Origin: Candidatus Krumholzibacteriia bacterium
GTDB lineage: Bacteria > Krumholzibacteriota > Krumholzibacteriia > WVZY01 > JAKEHA01
Direction of reading: 5' to 3'
DNA length: 64,000 nucleotides
Assembly: GCA_029865265.1 (NCBI GenBank)
Contig: JAOUHG010000001.1
Location: forward strand, 93,213 to 157,212
Shown: positions 23,785 through 62,532 of the stretch, piece by piece
Layout: every line of letters begins with the position of its first letter
Numbering within the stretch: position 1 is the first letter of the stretch
Position numbers and translations under genes: made by a program
The notes under the pieces: model-generated
What the model saw: only the letters and a program-made list of their open reading frames with translations
Told to the model about the DNA's origin: nothing
The model's database searches: none

Positions 23785-25842
23785 ATGCAACACGTATCCC
23801 ATCGTGCCATATTGCTCCTCGCGACAGCGCTCGTGTTGTCGTCTTCGACGATTGCCCATGCGCAGAGGGTTCGGCCGGCGCGTATCCCGCCCACGGCCGG
23901 TGACGGTGCCGCCGGTTGTGCCGAGGCCAAGTCTGCGTTCGCGCTGTCCCCGGCGCGGGTGGTTGCGTCGCAGGCGAGCACCAATCTGGACATCACCTAT
24001 TACCATCTTGATTTGACGCCGGATCTGGTGGCGAGCACCGTGGCGGGAACGGTACGCGTGGAAGGCAAGGTGGTGGGATCCGCGCTCACGGTTCTTTCGC
24101 TCGATCTGGCCGCGTCCATGATCGTGTCGGCCGTGGCGCTGGCGGATGCGACGCCGCTTGTCTTTGCGCACCCGGGCGATGTGTTGAACATCACCCTGCC
24201 CGCACCGCTTGTTGCGGGTTCGCAGGTCGCCGTCGATATAACGTACAGTGGCACACCGGTCGTGTCCGGCTACGGCAATTTTGTGTTCGGGACGCGCGCA
24301 TCGGAGCGCTTTGGCTGGAGCCTGTCAGAGCCCTACGGCGCGCGCGAGTGGTGGCCGTGCAAGGATCACCCATCGGACAAGGCGGATTCCGTGCGGGTGA
24401 CGGTAACGGTTCCCGATGGTTACCGCGTGGGCTCGCAGGGAATCCTGGAAAGCGAAACCTCCGCGGCCGGAATGACCACCTACGAGTGGGTCTCCCGCTA
24501 TCCCATATCGAACTATCTGGTATCGGTTGCCATCGGTGACTACGTGCGCTACCTGGACAGCTACGATCGCCCCGCGATACTCGCCGCCCGTTATGGTCCG
24601 CTGTCGTTGCCACTCGAGCACCTGCTTTACAACGACAGCAACTCCGATCTGCCCGACGGCTGGAAGAACGTGACCGACGGTCTCGCCGTGTTCGAGGACT
24701 GGTTTGGCCCCTACCCGTTCGCCGGCGAGAAGTACGGACACGCCGAATTCACCTTTGGCGGCGGGATGGAACACCAGACCATGAGTTCCATGGGTGGCTC
24801 GGGGCCGGGGCTGGTGGCCCACGAGCTGGCGCACCAGTGGTACGGTGACAGCATCTCGCCCAAACGGTGGCCGCACCTGTGGCTCAACGAGGGCTTTGCC
24901 ACCTACGCCGAATACATCTACTGGAGCAACTGCAACGCAGAGTGCGATTCGCTCTACGCCGGCACCGCCGAGATCGTGCTGGCGTCGCGCTACCGGACGG
25001 CGCTGCGCGCGCCCGGCACGCTGGTGCTGGCGGACACGTCGAGCGTGAACGACATGTTCGATCCCACCCGCGTGTATGCCAAGGGGTCGGTGGTGTTGCA
25101 CATGCTGCGCTACGTGGTGGGCGAGACCGCGTTTCGGGACATTCTCACCGCGTGGGCGGCGGATCCGTCGGTCGAGTACGGCGTGGCGGAGACTGCCGAT
25201 TTTCAGCGCGTCGCGGAAACTGTCTCCGGCATGGACCTCGATAGATTCTTCCGGCAGTGGGTCGCCGACGGCACGGGCTACCCGGCGTACAGTTTCAGCG
25301 CGTACTGGAAGGCGGAGGGGTCGCAGTACCGGGTGTGGGTGACGTTGTCGCAGACACAGAAGCTCCCGGAATCAAATGTGGCGCTGTTCGAGATGCCCAT
25401 CGAGATTGCGGTGCAGACCATGGTAGATACCGTGCAGGTGCGCACGCGAGTCCTGAACAACCAGCAGAATCAGCTGATCGACTTCCTGGTGCCCGCGAGG
25501 CCCAGGTGGGTCACGCTGGATCCGGACCACTGGATCCTGCGCGCGGACGTCGACACGGTCTCCAGTGCCGCGGTGCCGTCGTATCCGAGCATCCTGGCCA
25601 TTGCCCCCAACCCGACGCGCGACTCGTTCTCGCTGCAGTACTCCATCGGGGGTAGCGGCACAACCACGCTGCTGATCTACGATGTGCAGGGCCGGCGTGT
25701 GTCCTCACAGAGTGTCTCCAACGCGGACAACGGTATTGCCTTCGAGACGGTGGACACGTCGCAACTCGCGTCGGGTGTGTACTTCCTGCGTATCTCGAAC
25801 AGTGGTGGACAGGCTACGCGCAAGTTCGTCGTGCTGCGCTGA
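23785..25842 (+). CDS. M1-family zinc aminopeptidase with signal peptide and T9SS-like C-terminal sorting domain
   Basis: GGMEHQ exopeptidase motif, HELAHQWYG zinc motif with a downstream E, and a signal peptide ([26 protein letters not shown]). The last ~75 aa ([15 protein letters not shown]...[11 protein letters not shown]...[10 protein letters not shown]) match the Por-secretion-tail pattern. Confidence 0.8.
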
Positions 25843-25847
25843 AGCCG

Positions 25848-46247: not shown

Positions 46248-46660
46248 CGCTGGCTGCCTCGCTGGGTGGTCGCGATGGCGATGCGTTTTGCACCGGCGGA
46301 CTTGGCTTCGGAGATCAATGCCTGCACGGTGGCGTAGGGAACCCCCTCGTCTGCGCGAACCACGAGCAGATTGTCCTCTTTGTTCCTCAACTTTTTGTCC
46401 AGGAACGAGGCCACCTGTCCGTAGCCCACCTTGGTGTCGTCGATGGCGATCTCACCCGTTCGGCCGATGGTCAGCGTGACGCGCTGGGAGCTGGCCATGC
46501 TCCGCGTCTCGGCGGGCGGAAGCCTGATCTCCATGTCGGACAGTGCAATCATCGGCGCCGTGACCATGAGGATGATGACCAGCACCAGTGCCACGTCGAT
46601 GATCGGTGTCACGTTGATCTTGGCAACCGTGGATGTATGCTCGATGAAGGGTCGGTTCAT
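46244..46660 (-). CDS. ExbD/TolR-family biopolymer transport protein (copy 2)
   Basis: INVTPIIDVALVLVIILMV signature TM; its stop overlaps the TonB start. Confidence 0.75.
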   Translation of the reverse strand: MNRPFIEHTSTVAKINVTPIIDVALVLVIILMVTAPMIALSDMEIRLPPAETRSMASSQRVTLTIGRTGEIAIDDTKVGYGQVASFLDKKLRNKEDNLLVVRADEGVPYATVQALISEAKSAGAKRIAIATTQRGSQR

Positions 46661-46673: not shown

Positions 46674-47087
46674 CTACTTTTCGACGACGGCGATCTCACC
46701 CGCGCCGCATTGCTTCGCCTGGTCGAGAACATTGACGAACGCCCCGTGGCTGACCCCGCTTCGGCAGCTGATAACGACACCGCGCTCCTTGGCGGTGTCG
46801 ATGAGGGGCCGCAGCGTCTCGCTCAGGTCGGCGCGCATGAGCGCGGTGCGGTTGACCAGCACGGTCGAGTCCGAGAGGAGGACGATCTCGACCCGCGGGT
46901 CACGCTCCTGCTTTTTGGCGCTCTTGGCGGCCTGGGCCGCGCTGCGCACGTCGATGCTCGACTCGAACGCCAGCGGCGTTGTGAGCAGCAGCATCACCAC
47001 CAGCACCAGCGAGACGTCGATCAACGGCGTCACGTTGACTTCGTGGTTGGACCCGTCGGGTCCGTCTTGTCTGCGGAAGAAGCGCAA
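46674..47087 (-). CDS. ExbD/TolR-family biopolymer transport protein (copy 1)
   Basis: VNVTPLIDVSLVLVVMLLL signature TM. Confidence 0.75.
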   Translation of the reverse strand: MRFFRRQDGPDGSNHEVNVTPLIDVSLVLVVMLLLTTPLAFESSIDVRSAAQAAKSAKKQERDPRVEIVLLSDSTVLVNRTALMRADLSETLRPLIDTAKERGVVISCRSGVSHGAFVNVLDQAKQCGAGEIAVVEK

Positions 47088-47102: not shown

Positions 47103-47813
47103 TCAACCCACGCTGACCGGCTGCGGTGCGGGCATGCTCTGGGTGGCCGATTCGCGCACACCGTCGGTCGGACGCGGACTCGACGGTCCGGAACCACTGC
47201 GCCGGGCCAGCCACGCGCGGATGGTGCGGGCGTGGTTCTCCGACATGGTGAGCATGACGGTGGAGCGCCGGATGAAATGGTTGTACAGGATGAGCGCGGG
47301 CACGGCGACGACGAGTCCCACCGCCGTCGTGACGAGCGCCTCGGCGATACCCGCGGCCACAACCGTCGGGGCCGCCGACCCCACGCGCGCCATGTCGTGG
47401 AAGGCACGCATGATGCCCCACACGGTTCCGAGCAGTCCCACCAGCGGGGCGGCACCGGCCATGGTTCCCAGCACGTTGAGGTTGCGCTCCAGCAGCAGCT
47501 TCTGCCTGCTCAGCTCCACGTAGATCTTCTCGTCGAGATCCGCGACTTCCTCGCTCTGCGCGCCGACGACGATCTCGAGCACCGGGCCCACCGGGTGCGT
47601 GCACTTGCCACAGCTCCACAGGGCTTCCTTGACCTCGCCCTTCTTGAGCCGCTGCGAAACCTCGTGCGCCATGGTGTCGGGATTGCCGCGGCGGCGCCAG
47701 AAGTAGATGGCCCGCTCGACCGCCACGCCAAGCGTGACGATGCTGAACAGGATCAGGATGATCATCGACGGACTCTCGGCCGTCAGCTTCAACCAGTCGA
47801 ACTCGCTGAACAT
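47103..47813 (-). CDS. MotA/TolQ/ExbB-family proton channel
   Basis: Three TM helices and the conserved C-terminal region (APLVGLLGTVWGIMRAFHDM...GIAEALVTTAVGLVVAVPA). The ATG is preceded by AGGAGG. Confidence 0.8.
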   Translation of the reverse strand: MFSEFDWLKLTAESPSMIILILFSIVTLGVAVERAIYFWRRRGNPDTMAHEVSQRLKKGEVKEALWSCGKCTHPVGPVLEIVVGAQSEEVADLDEKIYVELSRQKLLLERNLNVLGTMAGAAPLVGLLGTVWGIMRAFHDMARVGSAAPTVVAAGIAEALVTTAVGLVVAVPALILYNHFIRRSTVMLTMSENHARTIRAWLARRSGSGPSSPRPTDGVRESATQSMPAPQPVSVG

Positions 47814-47835: not shown

Positions 47836-50800
47836 TTACCGGCGGGACTCGAGCTCGGTCGCACGTTCCTTGGCCGCGACGACGAGCTCCGGATCCGTCG
47901 CGTTCTTGATGAGATCGCGATAGGCGGTGAGCGCCTTCCCGAACTCCTGGTTTCTCTCGTGCACTGCGGCACTGCGCGCCAGGGCCGAGAGACGGTATGG
48001 ATTGGACTTGTCGCCGCACTTCGCGGCAGCCGCGTAGGAAGAGAGCGCGGCCTTCTCGTCGCCTGACTGTTCCTCGCAGTAACCGGCCCGGAACTGCACC
48101 TCGACGCGCAGATCGGTTTCGAGACTCGCCGCCAGGGCCGCGTTGTACTCGCGCGCTGCCTCGGCGTAACGGCCCGCGTCCTCGTTGATGGCACCGAGCT
48201 GGAATGCGACTTGGCCGGCACGACGGTCGCGCGGATAGTCCGCCCGGTACTGCTCGAGCAGGGCCTGTGCGGCATCTACGTCGCCGAGCATGCGCTGGCA
48301 CAGGGCCAGGTTGTAGCGGGCGGCGGATCTGAGTTCAGCCGGGACGCTGTCGGAGAGTACGGCGGTGAAGTCCACCGCCGCGCGCATGTAGTCGCCCTCT
48401 GCGAAACGGCTGGCGCCCAGTTGCAACTGCACGGTCGGACGCAGCTCGCTCGCCGGGAAGAACGTGACGAACTGTTCCCACGCACCGCGCGCCTCGGCTT
48501 CGCGACCGGAACGGCTGTACGAGTCGCCCATCAGGTAGAGTGAGCGGTCGCCGGCCGAGTAGGAGGGGAACTGGCTGACGACACGGCGGAACGCCTCCGC
48601 GGCGCCCTCGAAGTCATCCGCCTGGTAGCGCCGCAGTGCGATCTCATACTGGGCATCCGCGGCGAAGCTGCTGGAGGGGAAGCGCTCCACCAGTTCGGCC
48701 AGCACTTCCTCGCCGTTCTCTTTCTGGCCCAGCTGATACAGGGCCAGCTCGATGCCGCGTTTCGCATCCTCAGCCACCGCGTGGTTGGGGAAGCGCTCGA
48801 TGACCATGGAGTAGGCCTCGATGGACTCCGGATAGTGGCCGGCGTTGTAGTCGCACTGCGCGATGCGCAGCGTTCCCACCGCCGACGAGCGGCTGTCCGC
48901 AAAATTGGTGGTGAGGCTCAGGTAACAGGCCTTCGCCTCTTCGTAGTGGCCCGCGGTGAAATAGACGTCACCCGCCCGCACCAGCGACTTCTCCGCGATG
49001 GGGGCGGTGGGGTCCATCCGCGCGACTTCCTCCCAGCGGTCCACGGCGTCGCCGTCCTGTCCCAGGCGCAGGTAGCACATGCCGGCCTGGTAGAGGGCCT
49101 GCGCACGGTCGGGGTGCGACGGGAAGCTGGCGAGGAACGATTCATAGGCCTTGGCGGCCTCTTTGTAGTGCTTCTCGTTGAAGAGAATGTGCGCCTTGTT
49201 GAGATAGGCGAAGCTCATGTCGCTCGACGCGCCGCTGGACGCGTAGCGGGCCAGCATGCGGTCCTGCGTCTGCATGGCCAGGTCGAGCTCGCCTTCCTGC
49301 GAGTAGGACCACGCCAGCAGCCGGTACGCGGGTACCGCGACGTCGGGGGTGGTGAACTCGGCGAGCAACTGCGTCAGCATCTGCTGCGCCTCGTCCTGCC
49401 GGCCCTGTGCGGCCAGAGCGTCAGCGTCGATCAGGAGTGCATTCGCGCGCCACAGCGACTTGCTGGGCGGCATGCGCTGCAGCAGCAGGTGGGGAATGCC
49501 CGAGAGCAGCCCCAGGTTTCCGGCGCGGTGGTAGGAGAGTTCCAGCAGGCACAGTGACGCCTCCACCAGTTCCTGCTTCTCCGGCGTTTCGAATTCGATG
49601 GTGCCCTCGCCGCGCACGGGCGCATAACGATCGAGCACGACGCGGAAGTAGGGCGCGGCCGCCGCGTAGCGGTTCTGCGACAGCAGTCCCGCGCCGGCCA
49701 GGTAGGCCGCGGCGGGTGCCTCGCGCGACGTCGGGTATCCGGAAACGACCGCCTGGTACGCACCCGTTGCCTCGGCGGGCCGGCCCAGGGCGTCGAGACT
49801 GCGCGCCACGCGGTACTGCGCCAGCGAGGCCAGGCCATGCTGGAAGTAGCGCGTCAGCACCTTGTTGAACTCGACGATGGCGGCCTCGTACTGCTCCGCC
49901 GAAAACAGCACCTCGCCCAGAACAATCTGTGCGCGTGCGGCGATCGTCGTGCCGGCGTACTCGGAGGCGACGGCACGCAACTGCGCCGTGCCTTCGTCGA
50001 ATTCGCCGGCCAGAACCGTGGATGCTGCTCCGCGCAGGCGCGCCTCGGCGCGGACCTCATCGGAGTTCACCGCGGCAACGACTTTGGCGAACTCCTCCGC
50101 CGCGCTCGCGTAGGCGCCGCTCTTGAAGAAGACATTGGCCTTGGCCAGTCTGGCGACGTCGCGCAGGCGCGGATCGTCGTAGCGGTCCGCGACTTCCTGG
50201 TAACGGGCGGCCGCCTTGAGCGGTTTGCCGGTGGCCTCGTCGGTGAGCGCGCGCAGGTACACGCACGCCGGATCCAGCGACGTCCCGCTCGGCTCCACCT
50301 TCACGTCGGAATAGCGACCCTCCAGGAACGCCGTGGTTCCCTCGGCCAGCGTCAAGCGGGCGTCATTGGCGAGCCACGGGAACTCGCGTCGGGTCTGCGC
50401 GAGTATAGAGACGGCCAGACCGACGCTGTCGCGGCGAATGGCGTTCCACGCGCGCGCCAGCATTGCCTCGCTGCGCGCGGGAGAGTTCGGGTTGTCTCGC
50501 AGCCACTTCACCCACTCCTTCTCCGCGTCCTCGTCGCGTCCCGTCGCTTCCAGAGTCTGGATGGCGGCGAGGCTCGCGTCGTCCACGAGGGGCGTCCTCT
50601 TTGCGTCCTTGCCAGCCTCGCGGTACGTCTTGTTGGCCTGGTCGTACTGCCCGAGCGCAAACAGGATCTCGCCGGCCAGGAAACGCGCCGCGGCCTTCTG
50701 CTCCTTCGGCACATCACCATCCAGGAACAGGCTCATGCGGCGGTCGAGATCCACGATGGCGGCGGTTCTTTCCGGCGCCGGCAGGTGCTGCGCCGCGTCG

Positions 50801-50946
50801 AACGCCAGCCCGATGTCGGAAAGTGGCTCCACCGGTGCACCCGCGCGCGCAGCTGCAGACACGGCAATCGTGCCGAGCGCGAGCAGTGCCAGCGCGGCGC
50901 CCTGGCGGCGCATGCGTTCGGCCATGAGAGTCAACTGGTTGCGCAT
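47836..50946 (-). CDS. large (1036 aa) TPR-repeat protein with signal peptide
   Basis: N-terminal signal (ALALLALGTIAVSAAARA) followed by >20 TPR-like units. It sits 22 nt upstream of ExbB on the same strand. Confidence 0.7.
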   Translation of the reverse strand: MRNQLTLMAERMRRQGAALALLALGTIAVSAAARAGAPVEPLSDIGLAFDAAQHLPAPERTAAIVDLDRRMSLFLDGDVPKEQKAAARFLAGEILFALGQYDQANKTYREAGKDAKRTPLVDDASLAAIQTLEATGRDEDAEKEWVKWLRDNPNSPARSEAMLARAWNAIRRDSVGLAVSILAQTRREFPWLANDARLTLAEGTTAFLEGRYSDVKVEPSGTSLDPACVYLRALTDEATGKPLKAAARYQEVADRYDDPRLRDVARLAKANVFFKSGAYASAAEEFAKVVAAVNSDEVRAEARLRGAASTVLAGEFDEGTAQLRAVASEYAGTTIAARAQIVLGEVLFSAEQYEAAIVEFNKVLTRYFQHGLASLAQYRVARSLDALGRPAEATGAYQAVVSGYPTSREAPAAAYLAGAGLLSQNRYAAAAPYFRVVLDRYAPVRGEGTIEFETPEKQELVEASLCLLELSYHRAGNLGLLSGIPHLLLQRMPPSKSLWRANALLIDADALAAQGRQDEAQQMLTQLLAEFTTPDVAVPAYRLLAWSYSQEGELDLAMQTQDRMLARYASSGASSDMSFAYLNKAHILFNEKHYKEAAKAYESFLASFPSHPDRAQALYQAGMCYLRLGQDGDAVDRWEEVARMDPTAPIAEKSLVRAGDVYFTAGHYEEAKACYLSLTTNFADSRSSAVGTLRIAQCDYNAGHYPESIEAYSMVIERFPNHAVAEDAKRGIELALYQLGQKENGEEVLAELVERFPSSSFAADAQYEIALRRYQADDFEGAAEAFRRVVSQFPSYSAGDRSLYLMGDSYSRSGREAEARGAWEQFVTFFPASELRPTVQLQLGASRFAEGDYMRAAVDFTAVLSDSVPAELRSAARYNLALCQRMLGDVDAAQALLEQYRADYPRDRRAGQVAFQLGAINEDAGRYAEAAREYNAALAASLETDLRVEVQFRAGYCEEQSGDEKAALSSYAAAAKCGDKSNPYRLSALARSAAVHERNQEFGKALTAYRDLIKNATDPELVVAAKERATELESRR

Positions 50947-50959: not shown

Positions 50960-52246
50960 TCAGTGAACGATCACCGGAACGCTGCCCTGCGGACCCGACG
51001 TTGTGATCTCGACGGTCTTGTTCTCGGTACGCAGCACCCGTCCCTCGTCGTCGGTGACGGTCATGCGGTAGTGGTAGATGCCGTCGGGAAGGGTCATGCC
51101 GTTCTCGTCCTTGCCGTCCCACATGACGTGCGCGGGCGGAACACCCAGACCGCCGAACGAACGCACGGTTTCGCCGTGCTTGTCGACGATCGCCAGGTGC
51201 CATTCCCGGGTTTCGGCCTTGGTGCGCGCCTTGATCTCAAACTTGGTCACGGAGTTCTCGCCCAGCGGAGAGAACACCTGCGGTGTCGCCGTCGACGTGG
51301 CAAAGAAGCCGCCGAAACGGTACGAGAGCGCCACGCGGTGGATGATGCCGAGGTCGTGGTCCGACATGCCGTAGTCGAACTGCAGGCCCTGGTTGAGGCG
51401 GTAACTGAAGCCACCCGCGGGCTCGCTCTCAAAGAATCCGGCGCGCAGGCCGAAGGCCTCGTAGAGCCACACTTCGGTGCCGGCGCGGAACGTCGTGCCG
51501 GGGCCATCGCGGTGGTCGACTTCCAGCGAGAGCAGGCCCTTGCCGTTCAGGTATCCGAGCCCCAGGCCGCCGCGCACTTCGAGCGGGAAGGACTCTTCGA
51601 CATCGCGCGCGGTCAGGGTGGGACCACCGATGTTGAGCACCGACGCGCCCAGGCGAACCCGGGGCGTGATGCCGTACATGAGGCCCATGTCGAAGCCGAC
51701 GCCGGAGGCGTCGGCGTCTTCCACCTGCTGACGGATGATCTTGATGTTGGCACCCACCGAAAAGCGCGGAGAGAACGCCTTGGATCCCGAAATCAGGAAT
51801 GCCATGTCGCTCTGCTTGAACTCGCCCAGCGATTCGTTCAACTCGTTGGTGCGTTCGAAGTCACCCGAGTTGAGCGCCAGCATGGTGAAGCCGATGGTGG
51901 GGAGCGTTCGCGCCGGGACGGTGAAGCTGAACGCGTTGACGGACGTGCCCTCGAAGTAACGCGCGGTCTCCAGCGCGAACGCGTTCTGCGACTGCAAAAC
52001 CAGCCCGGCCGGGTTCCACACCGCGCCCAGCGGGTCGTCCGCCGCGGCCACGAAGGCGCCACCCAGGCCGACCGCACGCGCCGAGACATAGTCCGACAGC
52101 CAGTCGCCGGGAACGCCGTAGCTGGCGTCCTGGGCCGCCGCCGGCGCGGGCATGACGGCGGCGATCAACGCCGCTGCCAGCACCAGCCGGGTTGCGTGGC
52201 CGCTCATCGTGGTCAAAATGGATCGTGATAGTCCGTTGCGTTTCAT
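50960..52246 (-). CDS. FadL/PorV-like outer-membrane beta-barrel with an NPAG hatch motif, fused to a C-terminal FlgD-Ig-like domain
   Basis: Signal peptide, an N-terminal AVWNPAGLV motif, alternating-hydrophobic beta-strands ending in the aromatic ALSYRF, then an FlgD-Ig-like segment (HVMWDGKDENGMTLPDGIYHYRMTV). Confidence 0.5.
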   Translation of the reverse strand: MKRNGLSRSILTTMSGHATRLVLAAALIAAVMPAPAAAQDASYGVPGDWLSDYVSARAVGLGGAFVAAADDPLGAVWNPAGLVLQSQNAFALETARYFEGTSVNAFSFTVPARTLPTIGFTMLALNSGDFERTNELNESLGEFKQSDMAFLISGSKAFSPRFSVGANIKIIRQQVEDADASGVGFDMGLMYGITPRVRLGASVLNIGGPTLTARDVEESFPLEVRGGLGLGYLNGKGLLSLEVDHRDGPGTTFRAGTEVWLYEAFGLRAGFFESEPAGGFSYRLNQGLQFDYGMSDHDLGIIHRVALSYRFGGFFATSTATPQVFSPLGENSVTKFEIKARTKAETREWHLAIVDKHGETVRSFGGLGVPPAHVMWDGKDENGMTLPDGIYHYRMTVTDDEGRVLRTENKTVEITTSGPQGSVPVIVH

Positions 52247-52260: not shown

Positions 52261-55200
52261 TCAGCGAACGACCGCGATCTTGCGGCGCATGGAATGAAGC
52301 GTTTCGCCGTTACCGTTGGCCTGGATGTAGACGATGTAGCCACCCGTGGCAACGGTCTTGCCGTCCCCGTTCTTTCCATCCCAGACGAACTCATTCAATC
52401 CGGCCGTCCCTCCCTGTTGTCCGGAGGCAAACGTCTTCTCGAAGACGAGACCGCCGGTGAGGGTGAAGATGCGCATGCTGACGGTCGCGTTGTCCGAGAG
52501 CTTGTAGGCGATCGTCGTCGGCGTCTCACCCGGGTGGAACGGATTGGGGTAGTTGGATATGTAGCCGCCATCCGCGTTGGGATCGACGAGGGCGGTCTGG
52601 ATGTCGAGCTCTGCGGCGAGTGCGCCGGCCACCGCGCGCACGCGGCTGGTCTGCGGCTCGCGTGGCGAGTGGAAGTCGCAGCGCGCGGACCCGTTGGCCT
52701 GCGTGAGCGAGTCGATGGGTGTCAGCGTTCCACCGCCCAGCAGGAGCGAGAAGGCGGTGGCCTGGCCCGGGACGCCATTCTGATAGGCGTCGACCACGCG
52801 CGCGCTGACCGTCGCATGCTTGTTGCCGCCCACCCAGGACGGGCTGCTCGACATCACGATGTCCGTGGGCGCGCCCGGCGACACGGTGATTACTTCCGAT
52901 GCGGCGGGAGCGTTGCCGGCGTCGTCGCGCACGATGAGCACGATCGGTTCCGCGAAGGTGTAGGTCTCCGCCATCGCGCGCTGGCCCTGCAGGAGCTGGA
53001 ACTGCGTGTTGAGCAGTGTCCCGCGCCCCGCGGCCTGCGTGGAGGCGTTCTGCACCTCGACGGTGACGAAGGAGTTGATCTCCTGGATGACGCTGCCGGC
53101 GTCGTTGGTCACCTTCACGGTGAGGGTGAACTGCTCGCCGGCCTGCACGTTGAGCGGCGTGACTTCCGCCTCGAGGTGGAAGCCGCTCGAGATGGCGCGC
53201 ACCTGCGTGGTGCTCACCGGCATCGAGGGCTGGTTCACGTTGGAGGCGGTGATCTGCTGGAATCCGCCCGTCGACAGGCGGATGTTCATTGTCGCCACGC
53301 CGTCGACCATTGCCTGGTCGGCGGGAAGTTGCGCCAGGGGATCGCCCGACGTGATGCGGATGACGTCCGTCGCGCCGGTGACCGGGTTGTACCACTGGTC
53401 GGTGGCGTAGATGGTGAGGTTGAACGAATAGTTGATCGACTGGTCGGTCGCCGTTCCGGCGCGTCCCTCCGGGGTTCCCGGCGCAATCGTCTCACCCGGG
53501 CACAACAGCACGATGCGGCTGTAGGGGCCACCGGTCACGTACACCTGGCTCGAGGTGTGGGGCAGGATGGCCGAGTTGGTGGCGTGCGTTGCGGTGATGC
53601 GCTGGTACCCGGATCGGTACAGCGTCACGGACTGCACGAGTTCGCCGTTAACGAGCGTCACCGTTCCCGGCATGCCCGCGAACAGGTCGGTGGACGTCAG
53701 GTCGACATTGTCGTTGATGCCGGGCACGCGGTTCCAGAACTGATCGACCGCGCGAATGGTGGCGTTGAACGGCGTTCCCGCCTGCTGATCCGTTGGCGTG
53801 CCCGTGAAGCCGATGGCGGTGCCACCCGCGGGCGTCTGGCCGGGGAGCAACACCTGCAGCTTGGCCATGGGGCCCGCATTCACGACGAAAGCATTGCTGG
53901 TTCCGGTGTGCGGGGGCGCGGAGAAGTCGGAACAGGTAACCGACACCGAGCCGCCGGCACCGCGGAAGACCATGGAGCCCGTCCACACACCGTTGGTGAA
54001 CACGATTGCCTCGGGCGAAATGCTGCCGGGACCCGTGTTCGCGATCAGGATGGCGTTGCCGGCGTAGCCGGGGACGGTGTTGCCGCCCGCGTCGGTGGCA
54101 CGAACCGTCACCGGAACCGCCTGGCCGGCCGTCACCGGGCCGGTAATGGGGTCGAACTCGAAGTGGTGCGCGCCGCTCGCCATCACCATGATGCCGGCCG
54201 ATGTCATGCTCTGGATGGAGCCGTTGCTCTGGTCGTTGACGGTGAGGGTCTGCGTGCCCACCGTGTTGAGCGTGAAGGTGAAGCTGCGGAAGCCATTGGT
54301 GAGTGCTCCGGTGACGGGCGTCGCGCCGGCGTCGCTGGAGGTGATGCGCACGTTGTCGCCGCTCGGAACCGGGTTCCAGTAGGCGTCGGTGGCGTAGACG
54401 TCCACCGAGAATGCGACGGCCGCCGTCTGCGACGCCGGGCTCCCCAGCAGTCCCGCCACGCTGCCCGGCAGGGGGTCCTGACCGGGAGCGATCACCTGCA
54501 GGCGGTTGAAGGGGCCGGGATGCACGGTGAACGGATCGCTGGTTCCGTTGATGGAAGGATCCGCCGCCAGGTAGGCAACAATGTTCACGTTGCCGCGGTT
54601 GATGCTGGTCTGGTCGGCGCGGTACATGGTAACGCTGCCCGACCAGGTTCCGCCCGACAGGGTCACGGTCGCGGGGCTGATGCGGCCGTCGCCGTAGCTC
54701 GTTACCTCGTTCAGGCTGATGGGGCCACTATAAGGAACGGTGCTGCCGCCGGGGTCCACCGCGGTGATGGAAATGGACATCGGCTGGCCGGCGTACTGGT
54801 TCTTCTGGTTGATGCGCGAGAACTCGAACCCCTGCAGCAGGTACGACGACACGCTGGAAGACGTCGCCAGCGGAATGGTCGGGTCCGATTGGTCATCCGC
54901 GCTGAACGTGTAACTCCCAGCGGCATTGAGCGTTACCTGCACCGTCGCGGTGCCGCCCGCAAGGCTGAAGGCCGACGGCAGCGATGCGCTCGCGTCGGTC
55001 GACGTCAGCGATACCGAGTTTGTGATTGATGTCACGAGGTTCCAGGACGCGTCGCACGCGCGTACGGTCACCGTAAAGGGAACCCCGACAGTCTGGCTCA
55101 CGGGGGCACCGGACTTGCCGGTCCCCGTTCCCGGCGCGGGAGACTCGCCTGGCAGGATCACCTGCAGGTTTGTATACGACTGCGCGGCCGCGTCATGTGC

Positions 55201-55263
55201 CGGCAGTCCCACCCCGGCGACGACCACCAACATGCAGACAAGAGACGTCAACGCCTTTCGCAC
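52261..55263 (-). CDS. ~1000-aa secreted cell-surface protein with tandem Ig-like/BIG-type repeats and a T9SS-like C-terminal sorting domain
   Basis: GTG start preceded by AAGGAG, signal peptide (LVCMLVVVAGVGLPAHDAAAQ), repeated ~100-aa Thr/Ser/Gly-rich beta-repeat modules, and a tail (YPNPFHPGETPTTIAYKL...FVWDGKNGDGKTVATGGYIVYIQA). Confidence 0.6.
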   Translation of the reverse strand: MRKALTSLVCMLVVVAGVGLPAHDAAAQSYTNLQVILPGESPAPGTGTGKSGAPVSQTVGVPFTVTVRACDASWNLVTSITNSVSLTSTDASASLPSAFSLAGGTATVQVTLNAAGSYTFSADDQSDPTIPLATSSSVSSYLLQGFEFSRINQKNQYAGQPMSISITAVDPGGSTVPYSGPISLNEVTSYGDGRISPATVTLSGGTWSGSVTMYRADQTSINRGNVNIVAYLAADPSINGTSDPFTVHPGPFNRLQVIAPGQDPLPGSVAGLLGSPASQTAAVAFSVDVYATDAYWNPVPSGDNVRITSSDAGATPVTGALTNGFRSFTFTLNTVGTQTLTVNDQSNGSIQSMTSAGIMVMASGAHHFEFDPITGPVTAGQAVPVTVRATDAGGNTVPGYAGNAILIANTGPGSISPEAIVFTNGVWTGSMVFRGAGGSVSVTCSDFSAPPHTGTSNAFVVNAGPMAKLQVLLPGQTPAGGTAIGFTGTPTDQQAGTPFNATIRAVDQFWNRVPGINDNVDLTSTDLFAGMPGTVTLVNGELVQSVTLYRSGYQRITATHATNSAILPHTSSQVYVTGGPYSRIVLLCPGETIAPGTPEGRAGTATDQSINYSFNLTIYATDQWYNPVTGATDVIRITSGDPLAQLPADQAMVDGVATMNIRLSTGGFQQITASNVNQPSMPVSTTQVRAISSGFHLEAEVTPLNVQAGEQFTLTVKVTNDAGSVIQEINSFVTVEVQNASTQAAGRGTLLNTQFQLLQGQRAMAETYTFAEPIVLIVRDDAGNAPAASEVITVSPGAPTDIVMSSSPSWVGGNKHATVSARVVDAYQNGVPGQATAFSLLLGGGTLTPIDSLTQANGSARCDFHSPREPQTSRVRAVAGALAAELDIQTALVDPNADGGYISNYPNPFHPGETPTTIAYKLSDNATVSMRIFTLTGGLVFEKTFASGQQGGTAGLNEFVWDGKNGDGKTVATGGYIVYIQANGNGETLHSMRRKIAVVR

Positions 55264-55404
55264 GCGTATCACTCCTTGAACAATCGGGCACGATGAGGAC
55301 GTGCGCTCCCTTAGCGGGAGCGGCGTACCCATCCACCGCCACAATCGGCAACCAGGTAACGTTAGAATCAGATTCTGTTCAGCAAGTGACGTACCAGCCC
55401 CCAC

Positions 55405-57658: not shown

Positions 57659-57738
57659 GCCGTGTTTGCGCCTCCGTTGCGTGGCACATCCTGTGCAGTC
57701 TCACCCGTGCGTGGAGTAACCGACCGAGGGAGGACATC

Positions 57739-58983
57739 ATGAGGAACTACCGCGACCGAAGCGCCTGGCCGAATCGGGCCAATATGCGCGCCGCCCTTGC
57801 GGGCGCGATGATTCTTTCCAGCCTGCTCGCGTGGGGCGATGCCAGGGCCCAGTGTGCCATGCAGCAGTTTCAAAACTACACCGGTGGCGGGACCACGGCG
57901 TGCCCCTGCTTTGTCTCCGGTGAACAGGCGGGTGCGGTGTTCAACCTGCCCGCTTCCGAGTATCCCATCGAGATCCTGCGCGTGGGCGTAGGCTGGGGGT
58001 CCGCCTTCGGAGGGTCGGGACAGACGCTGGAACAGGCCATCCACATTTATACCGGCAGCATCCCCAACCCGGGTCTGCCGCTGTTCTCGCTGGTGGGCCC
58101 GCAGCTCACCGACGGCGCCATCAACGAGTTCAACCTGGAGCCGCTGCCGGGAGAAATCCGCATCGAGTCCGGTTCGTTCATGGTGACGCTCGAGTTCATG
58201 AACACCAATCAGAATGACTTCTTTGCCGGCACCGTGGTGTCCGACGGCAACGGTTGCCAGCCCGGCAAGAACGTGATCTACGCGATACCCGGCGGCTGGG
58301 GCGATGCCTGCTCGGCGGGCGTGAGCGGCGACTGGGTGTTCTTTGTGAAGTATCGCTCGCTCAAGGTAACCGCGGGTGCGAGTCCGGTGTCGGTTGCGTT
58401 CAGCGGTGTTCCGTTCAATCAGACCACGTGTGACACGGTCTACGTGTCCAACACCGGCTGTGACACGCTCATGATCGACGGCATCCTGGGGTGCGGCACA
58501 TCGCCATTCTCCCTCGACACCACCATGACGTCGCACTCGGTGCCGCCCGGTGGTCAGACGCCGATCACGGTGTGCGTCACGCCCACCAGTGCCGCCACGG
58601 ATAATTGCACCATCACCGTGGTGAGCAATGCCGGCAACGGCCCCACCATGATCCCGGTTTCGCTGGATGGCGTGACCGCGGTGTCGGGTCCGCCGGTGGA
58701 CAACGGATTCGGCATTCTCAGTGTCGCGCCCAACCCGTTCAATCCCCAGACCACCATCCGCTTTGTCATTCCGAGAGCGCTGCCGGTGACGGCGGAGGTG
58801 TGGGCGGTGGACGGATCGCACGTTCGCACGCTGGCGCGTGAACAGAATTTCCCCGCCGGCGACAACGCCCTGGTGTGGGATGGACGCAGCGACGGCGGAC
58901 AGTCCGTGGTCTCCGGCGTGTACTTCCTGAGCGTGAAGACGGCGCTGGGACGCCGCGTAACCCGGGCCGTGCTGCTGGAATAG
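57739..58983 (+). CDS. hypothetical secreted Cys-rich protein with T9SS-like C-terminal sorting domain
   Basis: GAGGGAGG RBS, signal peptide (ALAGAMILSSLLAWGDARA), and a tail (APNPFNPQTTIRFVI...LVWDGRSDGGQSVVSGVYFLSVK). Confidence 0.55.
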   Translation: MRNYRDRSAWPNRANMRAALAGAMILSSLLAWGDARAQCAMQQFQNYTGGGTTACPCFVSGEQAGAVFNLPASEYPIEILRVGVGWGSAFGGSGQTLEQAIHIYTGSIPNPGLPLFSLVGPQLTDGAINEFNLEPLPGEIRIESGSFMVTLEFMNTNQNDFFAGTVVSDGNGCQPGKNVIYAIPGGWGDACSAGVSGDWVFFVKYRSLKVTAGASPVSVAFSGVPFNQTTCDTVYVSNTGCDTLMIDGILGCGTSPFSLDTTMTSHSVPPGGQTPITVCVTPTSAATDNCTITVVSNAGNGPTMIPVSLDGVTAVSGPPVDNGFGILSVAPNPFNPQTTIRFVIPRALPVTAEVWAVDGSHVRTLAREQNFPAGDNALVWDGRSDGGQSVVSGVYFLSVKTALGRRVTRAVLLE

Positions 58984-60430: not shown

Positions 60431-60435
60431 GACGC

Positions 60436-62532
60436 CTACTCGCGGGCGTGCATACGCACGATGCGTCGTGCCGCCGCACCGTCCGCCGACAGCACGCGCA
60501 CAAAATAGACACCGGGCGCCACAGGGCGTCCGGTGTCGTCTTTTCCGTCCCACAGGAACTGGTTTGCGTTCGCGCCCGGCGGAGAGAGGCGGCGCACGCG
60601 CCGTCCTCGCGCGTCGTGGATGGTGATCATGGCCGGTGATCTTCCGGACAGCACGATGGTGGTCACGCCCCGCGATGGATTGGGGAAGACCGACCGGATG
60701 ATACCGCCACCAGCACCGCCGGGAGGCGTGCGCAGCGGGACCACGCTGGCCACCACCGGGTCGTGATCGCTGGCCGCGTTCGCAGACCCGCTGCACACGT
60801 GGACGATATCCACCGCGGCGCCCGCAACCAGCGCCGGGCTCACGAGGATACGATCGTAGGCGTGGGCGTTGCCCTCGTAGACATACGAGTAGCGCTCTTC
60901 CTCGCTGAGCCGCCAGTGCAGGTCGAAGAGCGCGGTCGATGACGACAGCGGCGCCAGCGCACCGGAGAAGACGTCGTCGTTGAAATCGCCCGCCACGATC
61001 ACGCGCGCGTCCGGATCCAGGCGCAGAATCGACTGCACGAAGTCGCGCACGATTTCCGCCTGCGCAAAGCGCTTGCCGGAGCGCGGATCGAAGGGCGGCT
61101 GCACGGAGCCGAATTCCGGCGTGGTGCCGCTGCGCGAGGAGAAATGGCACGCCACCAGGAACAGCGGCACCGCGCCCACACGGAACTCCGCGGCCAGCGG
61201 CTTGCGCGCCGCTTCCCACGCCGCGTTGGCCGGATCCACGCGCCCCGGGCTCAGCGTGAGCATCACGCTGTCGCCGGCCGGAACCGCCGACGTTCCCGTG
61301 TTCGCATCTGCTGCCCCGCGATCCACAAAGGAAATGCGCGTGGAATCGAACAATACTGCCACGCGGATGTTGCCGCCGGGAACACCACCGTCCGCGCCGT
61401 CGGCGGGTGCCACTTCGCGCGCGGCGTAGGTTGGACCCCCCGCGCGGCGTATGGCGGCGGCCAGCGTGTCGAGGGTGGCGGTGGCGCCTGCAGTGCCGTC
61501 GTCCACCGGTCCGCTCGAGTCCTGGATCTCCTGCATGACGAGGATGGCGGGCGCGCCGAGAGAGCGAACGACGATCTCCGCGAGGCGCGGCACGCGATCG
61601 GTGTCGGCGGGCGAGAGGTTGCGCACATTGAAGCTGGCGATGCTAAGCCGTTCGCGCCCGCCCGGGAGCGACACGGACGCCGGCGCGGGCGCGGCCGAAA
61701 CCGCCGCCGGCGACGCCCCGGGCAACACTTCGTAGCAGCCAAAGCGATAGTCCACCACGCCCACCACGTCCGCCATGACGTCGCCGGTGTCGAACGCCGG
61801 CATGGGTGCGGGCAGGAGCGCGTCGTCGATCTGGACCCGCTCCGGGTTGGCGTCGCGCAGCGTGGCGGTGAGGGCGCCGCCAGCACTCATGCCGCTGAAG
61901 CCGTTGTCGACCGCCACCCACACCTCGCCAAACGCGTTGGTGGGACCCACCACGCGTGGCGCCACCAGCCGCACGCGCATGCCTTCCAGACTCTCCCAGA
62001 AGTCGATGCCGTCGTGCGACGGTTCGAAGATGGTGAGGGCGTCGTCGTCCATGATGTCCCCGGGTGGAATCCGGCCCGAACCGCCGATCACGACCGCAAT
62101 GGGCAGCGGCCGCTGGCGCGCCAGGATGCGCACCGACGAGGGGTGGATCTCGGTGATGCTGAGATTCTCCGGGTCGCCGCCCGGGAGAAATTCCACCACG
62201 GTGCCGGCAACTTCGACCTCGTCACCCGATGAAACGCCCGGCGCGGTGCCGGTGTAGGTAAAGACGCCATCGGCGGTCGCGTTGTCGCCGTCGCCGGTTG
62301 GGTCCTGGAGGTAGAACCCGTTGTGGACGACGGTGGTCACGATACCGCGCGTGGTTACGTCTTCTCCGCGGAACGGTGAAACGTGCGCGCGACCCTGGAT
62401 GTCTGCGATGGGCGTGGATGCTGCAAGCGCGAGTGCGCCGGTGGCGATGAAGGTGGTGAGCACGAGCGGAAGCCTCCCTGGGAGGAGGAATGTGTCGTCA
62501 TCGCGGGAGGGAACCGGGAGGACGCAAAGCAT
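60436..62532 (-). CDS. extracellular endonuclease/exonuclease/phosphatase (EEP)-family nuclease with T9SS-like C-terminal sorting domain
   Basis: EEP catalytic blocks (SFNVRNL; VMQEIQD; GDFND; SDHDPV), an N-terminal signal-like region, and a tail (SVFPNPSRGVTTIVL...FLWDGKDDTGRPVAPGVYFVRV). Start is uncertain; the ORF is open to 62598. Confidence 0.6.
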   Translation of the reverse strand: MLCVLPVPSRDDDTFLLPGRLPLVLTTFIATGALALAASTPIADIQGRAHVSPFRGEDVTTRGIVTTVVHNGFYLQDPTGDGDNATADGVFTYTGTAPGVSSGDEVEVAGTVVEFLPGGDPENLSITEIHPSSVRILARQRPLPIAVVIGGSGRIPPGDIMDDDALTIFEPSHDGIDFWESLEGMRVRLVAPRVVGPTNAFGEVWVAVDNGFSGMSAGGALTATLRDANPERVQIDDALLPAPMPAFDTGDVMADVVGVVDYRFGCYEVLPGASPAAVSAAPAPASVSLPGGRERLSIASFNVRNLSPADTDRVPRLAEIVVRSLGAPAILVMQEIQDSSGPVDDGTAGATATLDTLAAAIRRAGGPTYAAREVAPADGADGGVPGGNIRVAVLFDSTRISFVDRGAADANTGTSAVPAGDSVMLTLSPGRVDPANAAWEAARKPLAAEFRVGAVPLFLVACHFSSRSGTTPEFGSVQPPFDPRSGKRFAQAEIVRDFVQSILRLDPDARVIVAGDFNDDVFSGALAPLSSSTALFDLHWRLSEEERYSYVYEGNAHAYDRILVSPALVAGAAVDIVHVCSGSANAASDHDPVVASVVPLRTPPGGAGGGIIRSVFPNPSRGVTTIVLSGRSPAMITIHDARGRRVRRLSPPGANANQFLWDGKDDTGRPVAPGVYFVRVLSADGAAARRIVRMHARE

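Follow-up and report, generated by a model that had tools for sequence, protein, structure and literature searches.

Results

Secreted proteins with a common C-terminal domain

The window, the whole 64,000-nucleotide stretch of DNA analysed here, stems from a metagenome-assembled genome (65% G+C) of the Krumholzibacteria, a phylum placed within the FCB superphylum (PMC10936416); the lineage is supported by the outer-membrane barrel protein of the locus, which is 100% identical to a Krumholzibacteria protein in GenBank. Four genes of the window encode cargo proteins with Sec-type hydrophobic N-termini and a related domain at the extreme C-terminus. The first is an M1 family aminopeptidase of 685 aa (23785..25842, plus strand; PF01433, 99 bits; PF17900, 50.5 bits) with a Sec signal peptide and an 83-aa tail (25591..25839, plus strand; pI 9.5) of the canonical Por_Secre_tail type, which scores 47.8 with PF18962 (GA 27) and 54.3 with TIGR04183 (cut-off 23). 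The second, an Ig-repeat protein of 1000 aa (52261..55263, minus strand), consists of a signal peptide, four LQV-PG(E/Q) repeats, a Big_1 match (47.3 bits) and a 101-aa tail (52264..52566, minus strand) of the FlgD-Ig-like CTD type, with 31.5 bits for PF13860 (GA 27) and 16.2 for TIGR04183, under the cut-off of 23.

The third is a Cys-rich hypothetical protein of 414 aa (57739..58983, plus strand), the start of which was corrected from the ORF start at 56890 to 57739; it combines a signal peptide with an ASH/choice-of-anchor-D-like Ig domain that stays slightly below threshold in both NF012200 (37.5, cut-off 45) and PF15780 (26.4, GA 27). Its 90-aa tail (58711..58980, plus strand) falls under all curated cut-offs (PF13860, 24.3-25.3 against 27; TIGR04183, 20.8 against 23; PF18962, 14). 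The fourth, a 675-aa extracellular nuclease of ExeM/NucH type with an EEP fold (60436..62463, minus strand; PF03372, 41.1 bits; NF033681, 110 bits), ends in an 89-aa tail (60439..60705, minus strand; pI 11.9) with scores of 31.6 for TIGR04183 (cut-off 23) and 31.4 for PF13860 (GA 27). Two further tail-bearing proteins, likewise with Sec signal peptides, lie directly beyond the window, one of 625 aa upstream and one of 551 aa downstream, and no additional tail-bearing gene was found inside it in the precomputed Pfam tables for the entire window.

For leave-one-out comparisons, an HMM was built from three tails and searched against the 583 stop-to-stop ORFs of the window, with each tail left out in turn. 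The omitted tails were recovered with E-values of 2.4e-9 (aminopeptidase), 7.8e-10 (Ig-repeat protein), 2.9e-15 (Cys-rich protein) and 2.4e-14 (nuclease), and besides the tails, the barrel and a 315-aa operon protein none of the ORFs scored below E 0.2. These values bear out an earlier note on this DNA, which had proposed a common C-terminal tail on at least four secreted proteins; the tail positions that it gave coincide with the C-termini of real genes in all four cases, and the domain is indeed shared, but is 83-101 aa long and not ~75 aa. Pairwise identities between the tails of merely 23-39% could point to chance or compositional resemblance of short motifs at this G+C content. This reading has next to no probability: it is ruled out by the leave-one-out E-values (2e-9 to 3e-15, with no unrelated ORF below 0.2) and by significant scores from independent curated models. 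Despite its scores below the cut-offs, the Cys-rich tail is clearly homologous to the other cargo tails.

The motifs put forward for the tails were confirmed in part. PNP is invariant, but the exact PNPF occurs in only two of the four tails; the WDG block is present in three and missing from the aminopeptidase tail, and the G(V/I)YF block is likewise found in three, with the Ig-repeat protein reading GGYIV instead. The IYD of the aminopeptidase, previously taken for a variant of WDG, aligns with an IYDV-G block (beta3-beta4) that is common to all tails. This block contains an invariant Gly, and the last strand (RKxVxL) a Lys or Arg; a Gly in beta3-beta4 and a basic last-strand residue have been described as functional motifs of type A CTDs (PMC11285876, PMC10994853). 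A FlgD-type WDGxDxxG block is found in five of the six tails from window and flanks, and therefore FlgD_ig (PF13860) often outscores PF18962, as it does in three of the four window tails.

Assignment to the type A CTD family

When the tails were compared with the models suggested in the earlier note, TIGR04183, PF18962 and PF13860 were passed by two, one and two window tails, respectively. A curated cut-off is exceeded by three of the four; the T9SS-specific cut-offs are missed by the Ig-repeat and Cys-rich proteins. PF18962 and PF13860 are both matched at E below 0.1 by all six tails. A profile of the six tails aligned with solved T9SS CTDs over the full length of these, namely those of PorU (6ZA2, E 4.7e-6), PorZ (5M11, E 1.6e-4) and F. 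johnsoniae NucA in the SprA-PorV translocon (8GLK_D, E 2.4e-4). PorU, PorZ and two translocon-bound CTDs of F. johnsoniae align at tail positions 5-87; FlgD, which provides the best sequence matches in the PDB, aligns with the core only (positions 25-80).

Among database candidates, 7971 of 8000 matched the tail profile. The best matches carry both PF18962 and PF13860, almost without exception, and 'T9SS type A sorting domain-containing protein [Candidatus Krumholzibacteria]' is among the NCBI names of the matches. The same designation, "T9SS type A sorting domain-containing protein", is already attached to the nuclease in GenBank, where the barrel is named "PorV/PorQ family protein". These scores and the structural CTD matches support the earlier proposal of a T9SS CTD/FlgD-Ig-like family; the tails are members of the T9SS type A CTD family, in a FlgD-Ig-like form common in non-Bacteroidota lineages of the FCB superphylum.

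A conserved eight-gene envelope operon

The Ig-repeat gene is the first of an eight-gene operon with the order Ig-CTD protein, barrel, giant TPR protein, ExbB, two ExbD, TonB and a FlgD-Ig/OmpA-like 315-aa protein, which is conserved in ~80 species of Krumholzibacteriota, Latescibacterota, Eisenbacteria and Zixibacteria. The second gene (50960..52246, minus strand) encodes a PorV/PorQ-family outer-membrane barrel of 428 aa with 14 predicted strands and a C-terminal FlgD-Ig domain. It scores 115.6 with NF033709 (cut-off 90) and fails the equivalog models of PorV (40.6 against 250), PorQ (97.3 against 220) and PorV2 (72.1 against 325). Its AF2 model (pLDDT 83, 14 long strands) retrieved PorV (6H3I_F, E 2.1e-9) first in the PDB, followed by FadL and TodX, and a profile of the barrel family matched PorV with E 5.5e-8.

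The FlgD-Ig domain of the barrel (aa 334-414; 51005..51247, minus strand) is internal and predicted to be periplasmic. It is recognised by PF13860 (31.8, GA 27, aa 334-400) and PF13585 (27.7), matches FlgD structures with E 3.6e-4, and aligns with the cargo tails over the core only (hhalign probability 96%, E 1.3e-9). Many of its residues are invariant in 53 homologues, including R362, G366, G368, P370, P371, H373, W376, D377, G378 and K379. As the PNPF strand is missing and a conserved extension follows, the domain is no terminal tag. The earlier note was right that the barrel carries a related domain, but its description as a variant sorting tail was rejected on the core-only alignment, the internal position and the missing PNPF strand.

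The remaining genes, all on the minus strand, encode a giant TPR protein of 1036 aa with a signal peptide (47836..50946), a MotA/TolQ/ExbB proton-channel protein (47103..47813; PF01618, 111.9 bits; in 55 of 56 related loci), two ExbD/TolR copies (46674..47087; PF02472, 73.7 bits; 54 of 55 loci; and 46244..46660; PF02472, 100.8 bits; 53 of 54 loci), a TonB/TolA-like force transducer (45297..46247; PF03544, 54.3 bits; 51 of 52 loci) and the exported 315-aa protein (44332..45279). The TPR gene is syntenic across related loci; its product matches TPR families, with YbgF/CpoB-type repeats reaching 228 bits over 10 stretches, and scores 111 bits with PorW/SprE, under the cut-off of 250. In the 315-aa protein, which has no match in Pfam or NCBIfam, a disordered N-terminal part is followed by an internal FlgD-Ig domain (~44665-44922), a sixth related domain that the earlier note had overlooked, and by a C-terminal alpha/beta domain. 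Similarity to the FlgD domain of the barrel was detected with phmmer (3e-7) and hhalign (97% probability, E 4.3e-11). The AF2 model, with pLDDT above 90 for aa 120-302, matches FlgD (3C12, 3.4e-4), OmpA-like Tp0624 (5JIR, 7.5e-4) and the peptidoglycan-binding domain of SiiA (6QVP, 1.1e-3, TMt 0.60), and its predicted C-terminal domain resembles peptidoglycan-binding domains. The FlgD-Ig domains in the barrel and in the 315-aa protein make up a subtype of their own, which is non-terminal and no address tag. Together with the Ig-repeat protein, these two proteins are fixed members of the operon, which probably encodes an envelope complex coupled to the proton motive force.

Role of the Ig-repeat protein

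The Ig-repeat protein had been described as an adhesin-like giant. It is no variable adhesin: mean identity is 61% over 1000 aa in 60 genomes from several phyla, and its gene lies directly upstream of the barrel gene in 66 of 68 loci. The tail has a mean column identity of 73% across phyla, with a nearly fixed end (ETLHxMRRKIAVVR), versus up to 48% only for different cargo tails of one genome. Uncleaved CTDs of PorZ and PorU keep these proteins on PorQ and PorV. By this analogy, the Ig-repeat tail could be a retained docking domain on the co-encoded PorV/PorQ-type barrel instead of a tag that is cleaved off, and the protein a structural subunit of an eight-gene envelope complex and no ordinary cargo. 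The fixed gene pair, found in several candidate phyla, fits this idea, as do the identity of the entire protein, the conservation of the tail and its best NCBIfam matches, to the CTD portions of the PorZ (33.6 bits) and PorU (27.1 bits) models. These scores are, however, far under the whole-protein cut-offs and also obtained by other cargo tails; a profile of the Ig-protein tail finds only FlgD in the PDB, weakly, and neither PorZ nor PorU, and the conservation of the tail may just reflect that of the entire protein. We consider docking a possible, if doubtful, role, for this protein only. Docking of the Ig-repeat tail would be compatible with T9SS export of other cargo.

Discussion

The explanation that we regard as probable is that the terminal CTDs export their cargo via a T9SS, and that the barrel and the 315-aa protein carry FlgD-Ig domains of a separate kind, tied to the operon. 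Cargo would pass the inner membrane through Sec, the folded CTD would be recognised in the periplasm by the SprA translocon of the T9SS, with PorV as carrier, the protein would be drawn to the cell surface, and a PorU-type sortase would remove the CTD or swap in a lipid anchor. Across the 82 kb of contig sequence that were scanned, the PorV/PorQ-family barrel is the sole T9SS-flavoured gene, and SprA, PorU, PorZ and GldK/L/M/N were not found. Among the large ORFs and tail-bearing ORFs that were tested around the operon in 80 related genomes (460 kb of flanking sequence), core genes were also not found, nor were they at three further loci. The earlier note had been prepared to abandon T9SS export if core genes were missing from the genome and all tails fell below threshold; the tails of three window proteins score above. 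We infer that the genome encodes a T9SS at another site and that export depends on it. That such a route defines much of the secretome, as the earlier note proposed, would be a conjecture.

Alternatively, the tails could be FlgD-Ig modules for interaction or anchoring that all bind one partner (for example cell wall, glycan or another Ig domain), on proteins that take another route (T2SS, vesicles) or reside in the periplasm. The predominance of PF13860 over PF18962, FlgD as best PDB sequence match and the non-terminal use of the same fold in the barrel and the 315-aa protein would agree with such a role, as would the lack of core genes in any sequence examined and a literature in which we found no link between T9SS and Krumholzibacteriota, Latescibacterota or Eisenbacteria; reviews and tools still place the T9SS in Bacteroidota exclusively. 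We nevertheless think this improbable, as the domain is strictly C-terminal on six proteins with unrelated passengers and opens with a PNP(F) strand and closes with a basic strand, both missing in FlgD and the barrel domain; the added strands align with the CTDs of PorU, PorZ and NucA over the full length. Moreover, TIGR04183 is passed by the aminopeptidase and nuclease tails, that of the flanking 551-aa protein (27.8 bits) and most tails tested in related genomes, and each of the four window proteins joins a strongly basic tail (pI 9.1-11.9) to an acidic passenger, as described for T9SS CTDs (PMC6851124). The cargo tails are the type IX secretion address tag domain found in Bacteroidota-type bacteria, and as such ordinary and in part already annotated; novelty, of a mild degree, is confined to the eight-gene envelope operon.

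Comparison with known systems

Like the type A CTDs of Bacteroidota (TIGR04183/PF18962; RgpB, RemZ, NucA), the tails are terminal, of ~70-100 aa and Ig-like fold, with a Gly in the beta3-beta4 loop, a basic last-strand residue and a basic charge, and sit on proteins that also carry a Sec signal; the tail profile matches the NucA CTD (8GLK_D), 8GLJ_D and RgpB, and peptidases and nucleases are cargo in both. They differ in that five of six carry WDGxDxxG, two of four window tails stay under T9SS cut-offs, and no T9SS has been described in the host phylum, with no core machinery in the 82 kb scanned. In Fibrobacter succinogenes, another FCB member outside the Bacteroidota, many hydrolytic enzymes, including cellulases, have basic TIGR04183-type terminal domains (BTD/Fpm-1) that the mature proteins lacked when examined by mass spectrometry (PMC6851124); unlike these tails with their proteomic support, those of Krumholzibacteria are known from sequence.

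The pairing of a CTD-bearing protein with a PorV/PorQ-family barrel is reminiscent of the P. gingivalis attachment complex (PorU/PorZ on PorV/PorQ), and the tails match the CTD segments of PorU and PorZ in models and structures. The Ig-repeat protein, however, has neither a C25 peptidase nor beta-propeller domains and its docking is hypothetical, the barrel fails both equivalog models, and the pair sits in an ExbBD-TonB-TPR operon. With the Ig-like domain of the FlgD hook cap (PF13860; 7EH9, 3OSV, 3C12), the closest sequence and fold match of the barrel and 315-aa protein domains, the tails share the core beta-sandwich and the WDGxDxxGxxxxxGxY block; in contrast to FlgD, the cargo tails start with an extra PNP(F) strand and end in a basic one, and there is no flagellar context.

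The operon itself is comparable to FSU_2396-2403 of Fibrobacter succinogenes (OmpA, TPR, TPR, ExbB, ExbD, ExbD, TonB) and to Tol-Pal and PorE-type tethers, by the gene order TPR, ExbB, ExbD, ExbD, TonB together with an outer-membrane or peptidoglycan-binding partner, and by the CpoB/YbgF-type repeats of its giant TPR protein. It differs in that the place of the outer-membrane partner is taken by a PorV/PorQ-type barrel with a fused FlgD-Ig domain, that the peptidoglycan-binding-like module resides on a separate FlgD-Ig protein, and that it includes a conserved Ig-repeat protein with a CTD.

Gene models

Gene starts in the window, which has a G+C content of 65%, were taken from the public calls on ENA ERZ27296339 contig k141_1279046 (313 kb), where the window corresponds to positions 100,058-164,057; the identical sequence is also present in the GenBank assembly GCA_029859345.1, a MAG. 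According to these calls and the translations, the M1 family aminopeptidase is encoded at 23785-25842 (+ strand, 685 aa), the Ig-repeat protein at 52261-55263 (- strand, 1000 aa), the Cys-rich protein at 57739-58983 (+ strand, 414 aa) and the ExeM/NucH-type EEP-fold nuclease at 60436-62463 (- strand, 675 aa). In the ORF list, the Cys-rich, Ig-repeat and nuclease genes were inflated to 697, 1132 and 720 aa, with true lengths of 414, 1000 and 675 aa. The corresponding in-frame extensions 5' of their starts (56890-57738 on the + strand, 55263-55659 and 62464-62598 on the - strand) are Arg/Ala/Pro-rich and non-coding, artefacts that the 65% G+C composition produces in ORF lists. For the Cys-rich gene, the 697-aa ORF at 56890-58983 was rejected, as the called start lies at 57739 and the Arg/Ala/Pro-rich upstream part falls outside the gene. 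The source phylum, Krumholzibacteriota, belongs to the FCB superphylum, beside Latescibacterota (PMC10936416).

Homology and distribution of the C-terminal tails

The translations of these four genes and of the barrel gene have the C-termini that the earlier note describes. An HMM built from the C-terminal tails of these four proteins was searched against the stop-to-stop ORFs in all six frames of the window (583 ORFs with a minimum length of 60 aa), and matched the four proteins only, apart from weak matches to the PorV/PorQ-family barrel and to the ORF at 44335-45306. The earlier note had proposed that one tail is shared by the four, and this was borne out by leave-one-out searches in the same 583 ORFs, in which each omitted tail was recovered, with E-values of 2.4e-9 (aminopeptidase), 7.8e-10 (Ig-repeat), 2.9e-15 (Cys-rich) and 2.4e-14 (nuclease). 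Precomputed Pfam tables, which extend across the entire window and some 9 kb beyond each end, revealed no further tail inside the window, and two outside it: on a 625-aa protein 6.6-8.5 kb upstream and on a 551-aa protein 1.6-3.3 kb downstream (window-equivalent 65607-67262). This brings the number of tail-bearing genes on about 82 kb of contig to six. Both flanking proteins carry the textbook form of the tail, PNPFNP ... WDGxDDxG ... SGxYFYRL ... RKMxLxK.

The six tails are alignable over 83-101 residues, and all terminate 0-3 residues before the stop codon. Invariant in the alignment are P-N-P, one Val and, in the IYDV-G and GVYF blocks respectively, the Gly and the G-x-Y. At the opposite end, inspection and hydropathy of the four window proteins revealed hydrophobic Sec-type segments with Ala-X-Ala-type sites. 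The tails are basic (pI 9.1-11.9), the passengers acidic (pI 4.4-5.0). The motifs listed for the four tails in the earlier note hold loosely: PNPF is exact in two of the four, and WDG and G(V/I)YF in three each. The aminopeptidase, described there as carrying IYD instead of WDG, had been mis-registered; the IYD block is common to all tails, and it is the WDG block that the aminopeptidase lacks.

In a collection of 5.8 billion proteins, 7971 of 8000 scored candidates matched the tail profile, and PF18962 and PF13860 co-occurred in nearly all of the best matches. Their source names include 'T9SS type A sorting domain-containing protein' and 'FlgD immunoglobulin-like domain containing protein' (NCBI; Krumholzibacteria, Latescibacteria); the label 'flagellar hook assembly protein FlgD' found on others, often from JGI, looks like a misannotation. 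Many of the best matches, on related metagenome contigs, are 'CTD-only' genes of 90-170 aa that adjoin or run into the end of a larger gene upstream of them; frameshifts or split gene calls, and not CTD proteins that exist on their own, are the probable explanation. Related genomes contain about one further tail-bearing ORF per 20 kb.

Family assignment of the tails

Tails were scored against the T9SS type A models TIGR04183 (cut-off 23) and PF18962 (GA 27) and the FlgD-Ig model PF13860 (GA 27). The aminopeptidase tail scored 54.3 and 47.8 with the first two and was below threshold for PF13860 (E < 0.1); the nuclease tail scored 31.6, 18.9 and 31.4; the Ig-repeat tail 16.2, not listed (at most 14) and 31.5; and the Cys-rich tail 20.8, 14 and 24.3-25.3. 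The tail of the flanking 551-aa protein reached 27.8 with TIGR04183. A T9SS-specific cut-off was thus passed by the aminopeptidase, nuclease and 551-aa tails, while the Ig-repeat and Cys-rich tails stayed below those of both TIGR04183 and PF18962 and are tied to the T9SS family only through their homology to the passing tails. Overall, three of the four window tails passed at least one curated threshold, as did the barrel domain discussed below; the Cys-rich tail passed none of the three. These were the HMM checks named in the earlier note, and its placement of the tails in the T9SS CTD/FlgD-Ig family held. At E < 0.1, PF18962 and PF13860 were both matched by all six tails.

Two other assignments were weighed. 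For a type B CTD (PF13585 CHU_C / TIGR04131), the cargo tails remained under the gathering threshold, with a best E-value of 2.2e-4 and PF13585 scores always weaker than those of PF18962. For FlgD itself, the equivalog models yielded 14-27 bits vs cut-offs of 230-383, and the window contains no flagellar genes. Among solved structures, the six-tail profile matched PorU (6ZA2, residues 1061-1153; E 4.7e-6), PorZ (5M11; E 1.6e-4), the NucA CTD in the F. johnsoniae SprA-PorV translocon (8GLK_D; E 2.4e-4), 8GLJ_D (E 3.6e-3) and RgpB (E 0.02). The solved T9SS CTDs align to the profile over essentially their full length, whereas FlgD structures are alignable over the central 55 residues only. The β3-β4 Gly is invariant in all six tails, and the last strand (RKxVxL) carries a Lys in four and an Arg in two. 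The tails appear rightly assigned to the T9SS type A CTD domain, which is known in kind and partly present in public annotation: GenBank names the nuclease 'T9SS type A sorting domain-containing protein'; its label for both the Ig-repeat and the Cys-rich protein is 'hypothetical'.

The barrel and its FlgD-Ig domain

The barrel (428 aa, 50960-52246, - strand) has a GenBank counterpart with 100% identity, named 'PorV/PorQ family protein [Candidatus Krumholzibacteria bacterium]', and passes the PorV/PorQ family model NF033709 (115.6 vs a cut-off of 90); it falls under the equivalog cut-offs for PorV (NF033710, 40.6 vs 250), PorQ (NF033711, 97.3 vs 220) and PorV2 (NF052325, 72.1 vs 325). In an AlphaFold (AF2) model computed with 53 homologues (pLDDT 83), 14 long strands precede an Ig domain. 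The model is closest in structure to PorV (6H3I_F, E 2.1e-9), with FadL and TodX next. Given the even strand number and outer-membrane protein topology, the C-terminal domain should be periplasmic.

This domain scores 31.8 with PF13860 (GA 27) and, alone among the tails and the barrel domain, reaches the threshold of PF13585 (27.7 vs 27). In hhalign it aligns to the cargo tails with 96% probability and an E-value of 1.3e-9, over the core only (tail columns 24-79); it differs from them in lacking the PNP(F) strand and in having a conserved C-terminal extension. Among the 53 homologues, the domain is rich in invariant residues: R362, G366, G368, P370, P371, H373, W376, D377, G378 and K379. Its nearest relative in the window is the internal domain of the 315-aa protein encoded at 44332-45279 (phmmer 3e-7; hhalign 97%, E 4.3e-11). 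The earlier note was therefore right to see a related FlgD-Ig-like segment on the barrel, and its grouping with the sorting tails did not stand: the core-only alignment, the missing PNP(F), the C-terminal extension and the internal position of the nearest relative show that the domain represents a separate subtype of the fold, non-terminal in position, and does not serve as an address tag.

The eight-gene operon

The barrel gene is part of an operon of eight co-directional, tightly spaced genes (44332-55263, - strand), in the order Ig-repeat CTD protein, barrel, 1036-aa TPR protein, ExbB, ExbD, ExbD, TonB-like protein and 315-aa protein, three of whose products have FlgD-Ig-type domains. The Ton/Tol motor module was recognized by PF01618 (111.9), PF02472 (73.7 and 100.8) and PF03544 (54.3), all above GA. 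Scanning one genome per GTDB species yielded 80 loci with a relative of the barrel, labelled as Krumholzibacteriota, Latescibacterota, Eisenbacteria, Zixibacteria and UBP1, with a few probably mislabelled bins, and the gene order was kept in essentially all of these 80 species-level genomes. Counting only loci whose contig reaches the expected position, the Ig-repeat protein was present in 66 of 68, ExbB in 55 of 56, the first and second ExbD in 54 of 55 and 53 of 54, the TonB-like protein in 51 of 52 and the 315-aa protein in 48 of 49. With a strict positional test the TPR gene was found in 54 of 62 loci, a shortfall attributed to ORF-boundary artefacts; a TPR match is listed in 74 of the 80 loci, and the remaining six end early at contig ends. 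Two independent gene tables, of a closed Latescibacterota chromosome and of a 706-kb contig, gave the same order.

The giant TPR protein was considered as a PorW/SprE or PorE homologue; its scores of 111 and 50 bits vs cut-offs of 250 and 600 are typical of TPR cross-matching and were rejected as evidence for a T9SS. In its model, the 315-aa protein, labelled 'hypothetical', starts with some 110 disordered residues, continues with a FlgD-type Ig domain and closes with an α/β domain of weak fold likeness to OmpA-like/MotB-like peptidoglycan-binding domains (E ~1e-3, TMt 0.6). No sequence match was obtained in Pfam, NCBIfam, OmpA_C or PDB chains, so that beyond this likeness of fold its identity as a Pal homologue was not supported; the cluster contains no TolB.

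The Ig-repeat protein retains on average 61% identity to the window residues over its 1000 aa in 60 genomes, which is unusually high for the adhesin-like protein suggested in the earlier note. Its tail is kept in at least 73 of the 80 loci, with a mean column identity of 73% and a near-fixed end. By analogy to PorZ-PorQ and PorU-PorV, the CTD may serve to tether the Ig-repeat protein to the barrel. When 24 orthologous Ig-repeat tails were combined into a profile, FlgD was its only match in the PDB, and a weak one; neither PorU nor PorZ stood out. For both the Ig-repeat protein and the barrel, membership of the conserved operon is the better explanation, and this operon we read as encoding a putative proton-motive-force-coupled envelope complex. 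A bolder proposal, which we rate as rather doubtful, is that 44332-55263 encodes a previously undescribed, proton-motive-force-driven, envelope-spanning machine, in which a PorV-type barrel permanently holds a conserved CTD surface protein and is coupled to the ExbBD/TonB motor. It would occur only in Krumholzibacteriota, Latescibacterota, Eisenbacteria and Zixibacteria, and could serve as a Tol-Pal substitute or as a surface-display or gliding-like device; should these phyla turn out to lack SprA and GldKLMN, it could also belong to the pathway by which their many CTD proteins are handled.

Other genes in the window

Directly downstream of the operon and convergent with it, a CMD-family protein is followed by a radical SAM protein with DUF3641 (42926-44318, + strand), a pairing that is annotated as arsenosugar biosynthesis (ArsS-like). 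On the other side, a 275-aa ORF (55531-56358, + strand) is divergent from the operon and called as a gene on public contigs; it matched no Pfam or NCBIfam family. A complete co-directional row for haem biosynthesis lies at 9897-20131 (+ strand): hemE, hemN, protoporphyrinogen oxidase, ferrochelatase, hemA, a fused hemC-hemD (567 aa), hemB and hemL. At 475-3210 (- strand), a 911-aa fusion joins the α and β parts of an ADP-forming acetyl-CoA synthetase to a C-terminal Pat-type GNAT acetyltransferase. A type III polyketide synthase (chalcone/stilbene synthase family, 362 aa) adjoins an ICMT/PEMT-family methyltransferase at 22049-23662 (- strand), an arrangement typical of alkylresorcinol or alkylpyrone lipid clusters. 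Hanks-type Ser/Thr kinases are encoded at 26952-29639 (- strand, 895 aa, fused to Tricorn/TolB-like β-propellers) and at 39507-41701 (- strand, 499 aa, after a double-FHA protein).

Search for T9SS core genes and implications

T9SS core components were sought with NCBIfam and Pfam models in window proteins, unannotated neighbours and ORFs from related loci (10 tail-bearing and 8 very large). SprA, PorU, PorZ and GldK/L/M/N were absent from the 82 kb of contig examined, and no core component was found among the tested large or tail-bearing ORFs from 460 kb flanking the operon in the 80 related genomes, or near three further CTD genes; the matches obtained were limited to CTDs, kinases, an RND pump and similar proteins. 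PorU was also sought via its own CTD: among the top 120 matches of the tail profile in the 5.8-billion-protein collection, which are short CTD fragments, there was no C25 domain. In the literature searched, we found nothing linking T9SS with Krumholzibacteriota, Latescibacterota, Eisenbacteria or Zixibacteria, and no description of CTD-bearing proteins in the first three.

The tails alone matter little; annotation pipelines already flag them. The published picture is incomplete: T9SS is still called Bacteroidota-specific, yet the tail profile matches thousands of database proteins, some of them named from Krumholzibacteriota, Latescibacterota and Eisenbacteria. Moreover, curated cut-offs miss real members such as the 'hypothetical' Ig-repeat and Cys-rich proteins, so that CTD-based secretome counts are too low in these phyla. 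Most likely, this uncultured FCB bacterium uses CTD-directed export to display or release proteins, among them a peptidase and a nuclease, and it is plausible that T9SS export shapes its secretome. The strictly conserved operon, in which an ExbBD-TonB motor is coupled with a PorV/PorQ-type barrel and with a CTD protein, is a concrete lead that could inform on the use of carrier barrels and CTDs outside the classical T9SS.

Comparison with known systems

Type A CTDs are seven-strand β-sandwiches. Within the SprA pore they bind PorV loops, and the substrate exits together with this carrier; their conserved motifs specify the fold, while one near-terminal Lys touches PorV (PMC10994853). Export requires the conserved β3-β4 loop Gly and the C-terminal strand (PMC11285876). 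The tails studied here keep both this Gly and a basic last-strand residue, which makes Sec/CTD/T9SS export the best-supported mechanism: tail-bearing proteins would be exported by Sec, their CTDs recognized by a T9SS translocon, and the proteins released or attached at the surface. In the literature searched, the T9SS machinery is placed in Bacteroidota and, for some FCB phyla beyond these, 'may also be present' (PMC11285876); for Fibrobacter, there is proteomic evidence for the removal of TIGR04183 tails (PMC6851124).

As for the operon, many motor-driven envelope systems of the Ton/Tol type are still undescribed, and PorE of the T9SS resembles a fused CpoB-TolB-Pal (PMC12204202). A similar core cluster exists in Fibrobacter succinogenes (FSU_2396-2403), in the order OmpA, TPR, TPR, ExbB, ExbD, ExbD and TonB, and its TPR and OmpA proteins are part of a surface multiprotein complex (PMC6851124).
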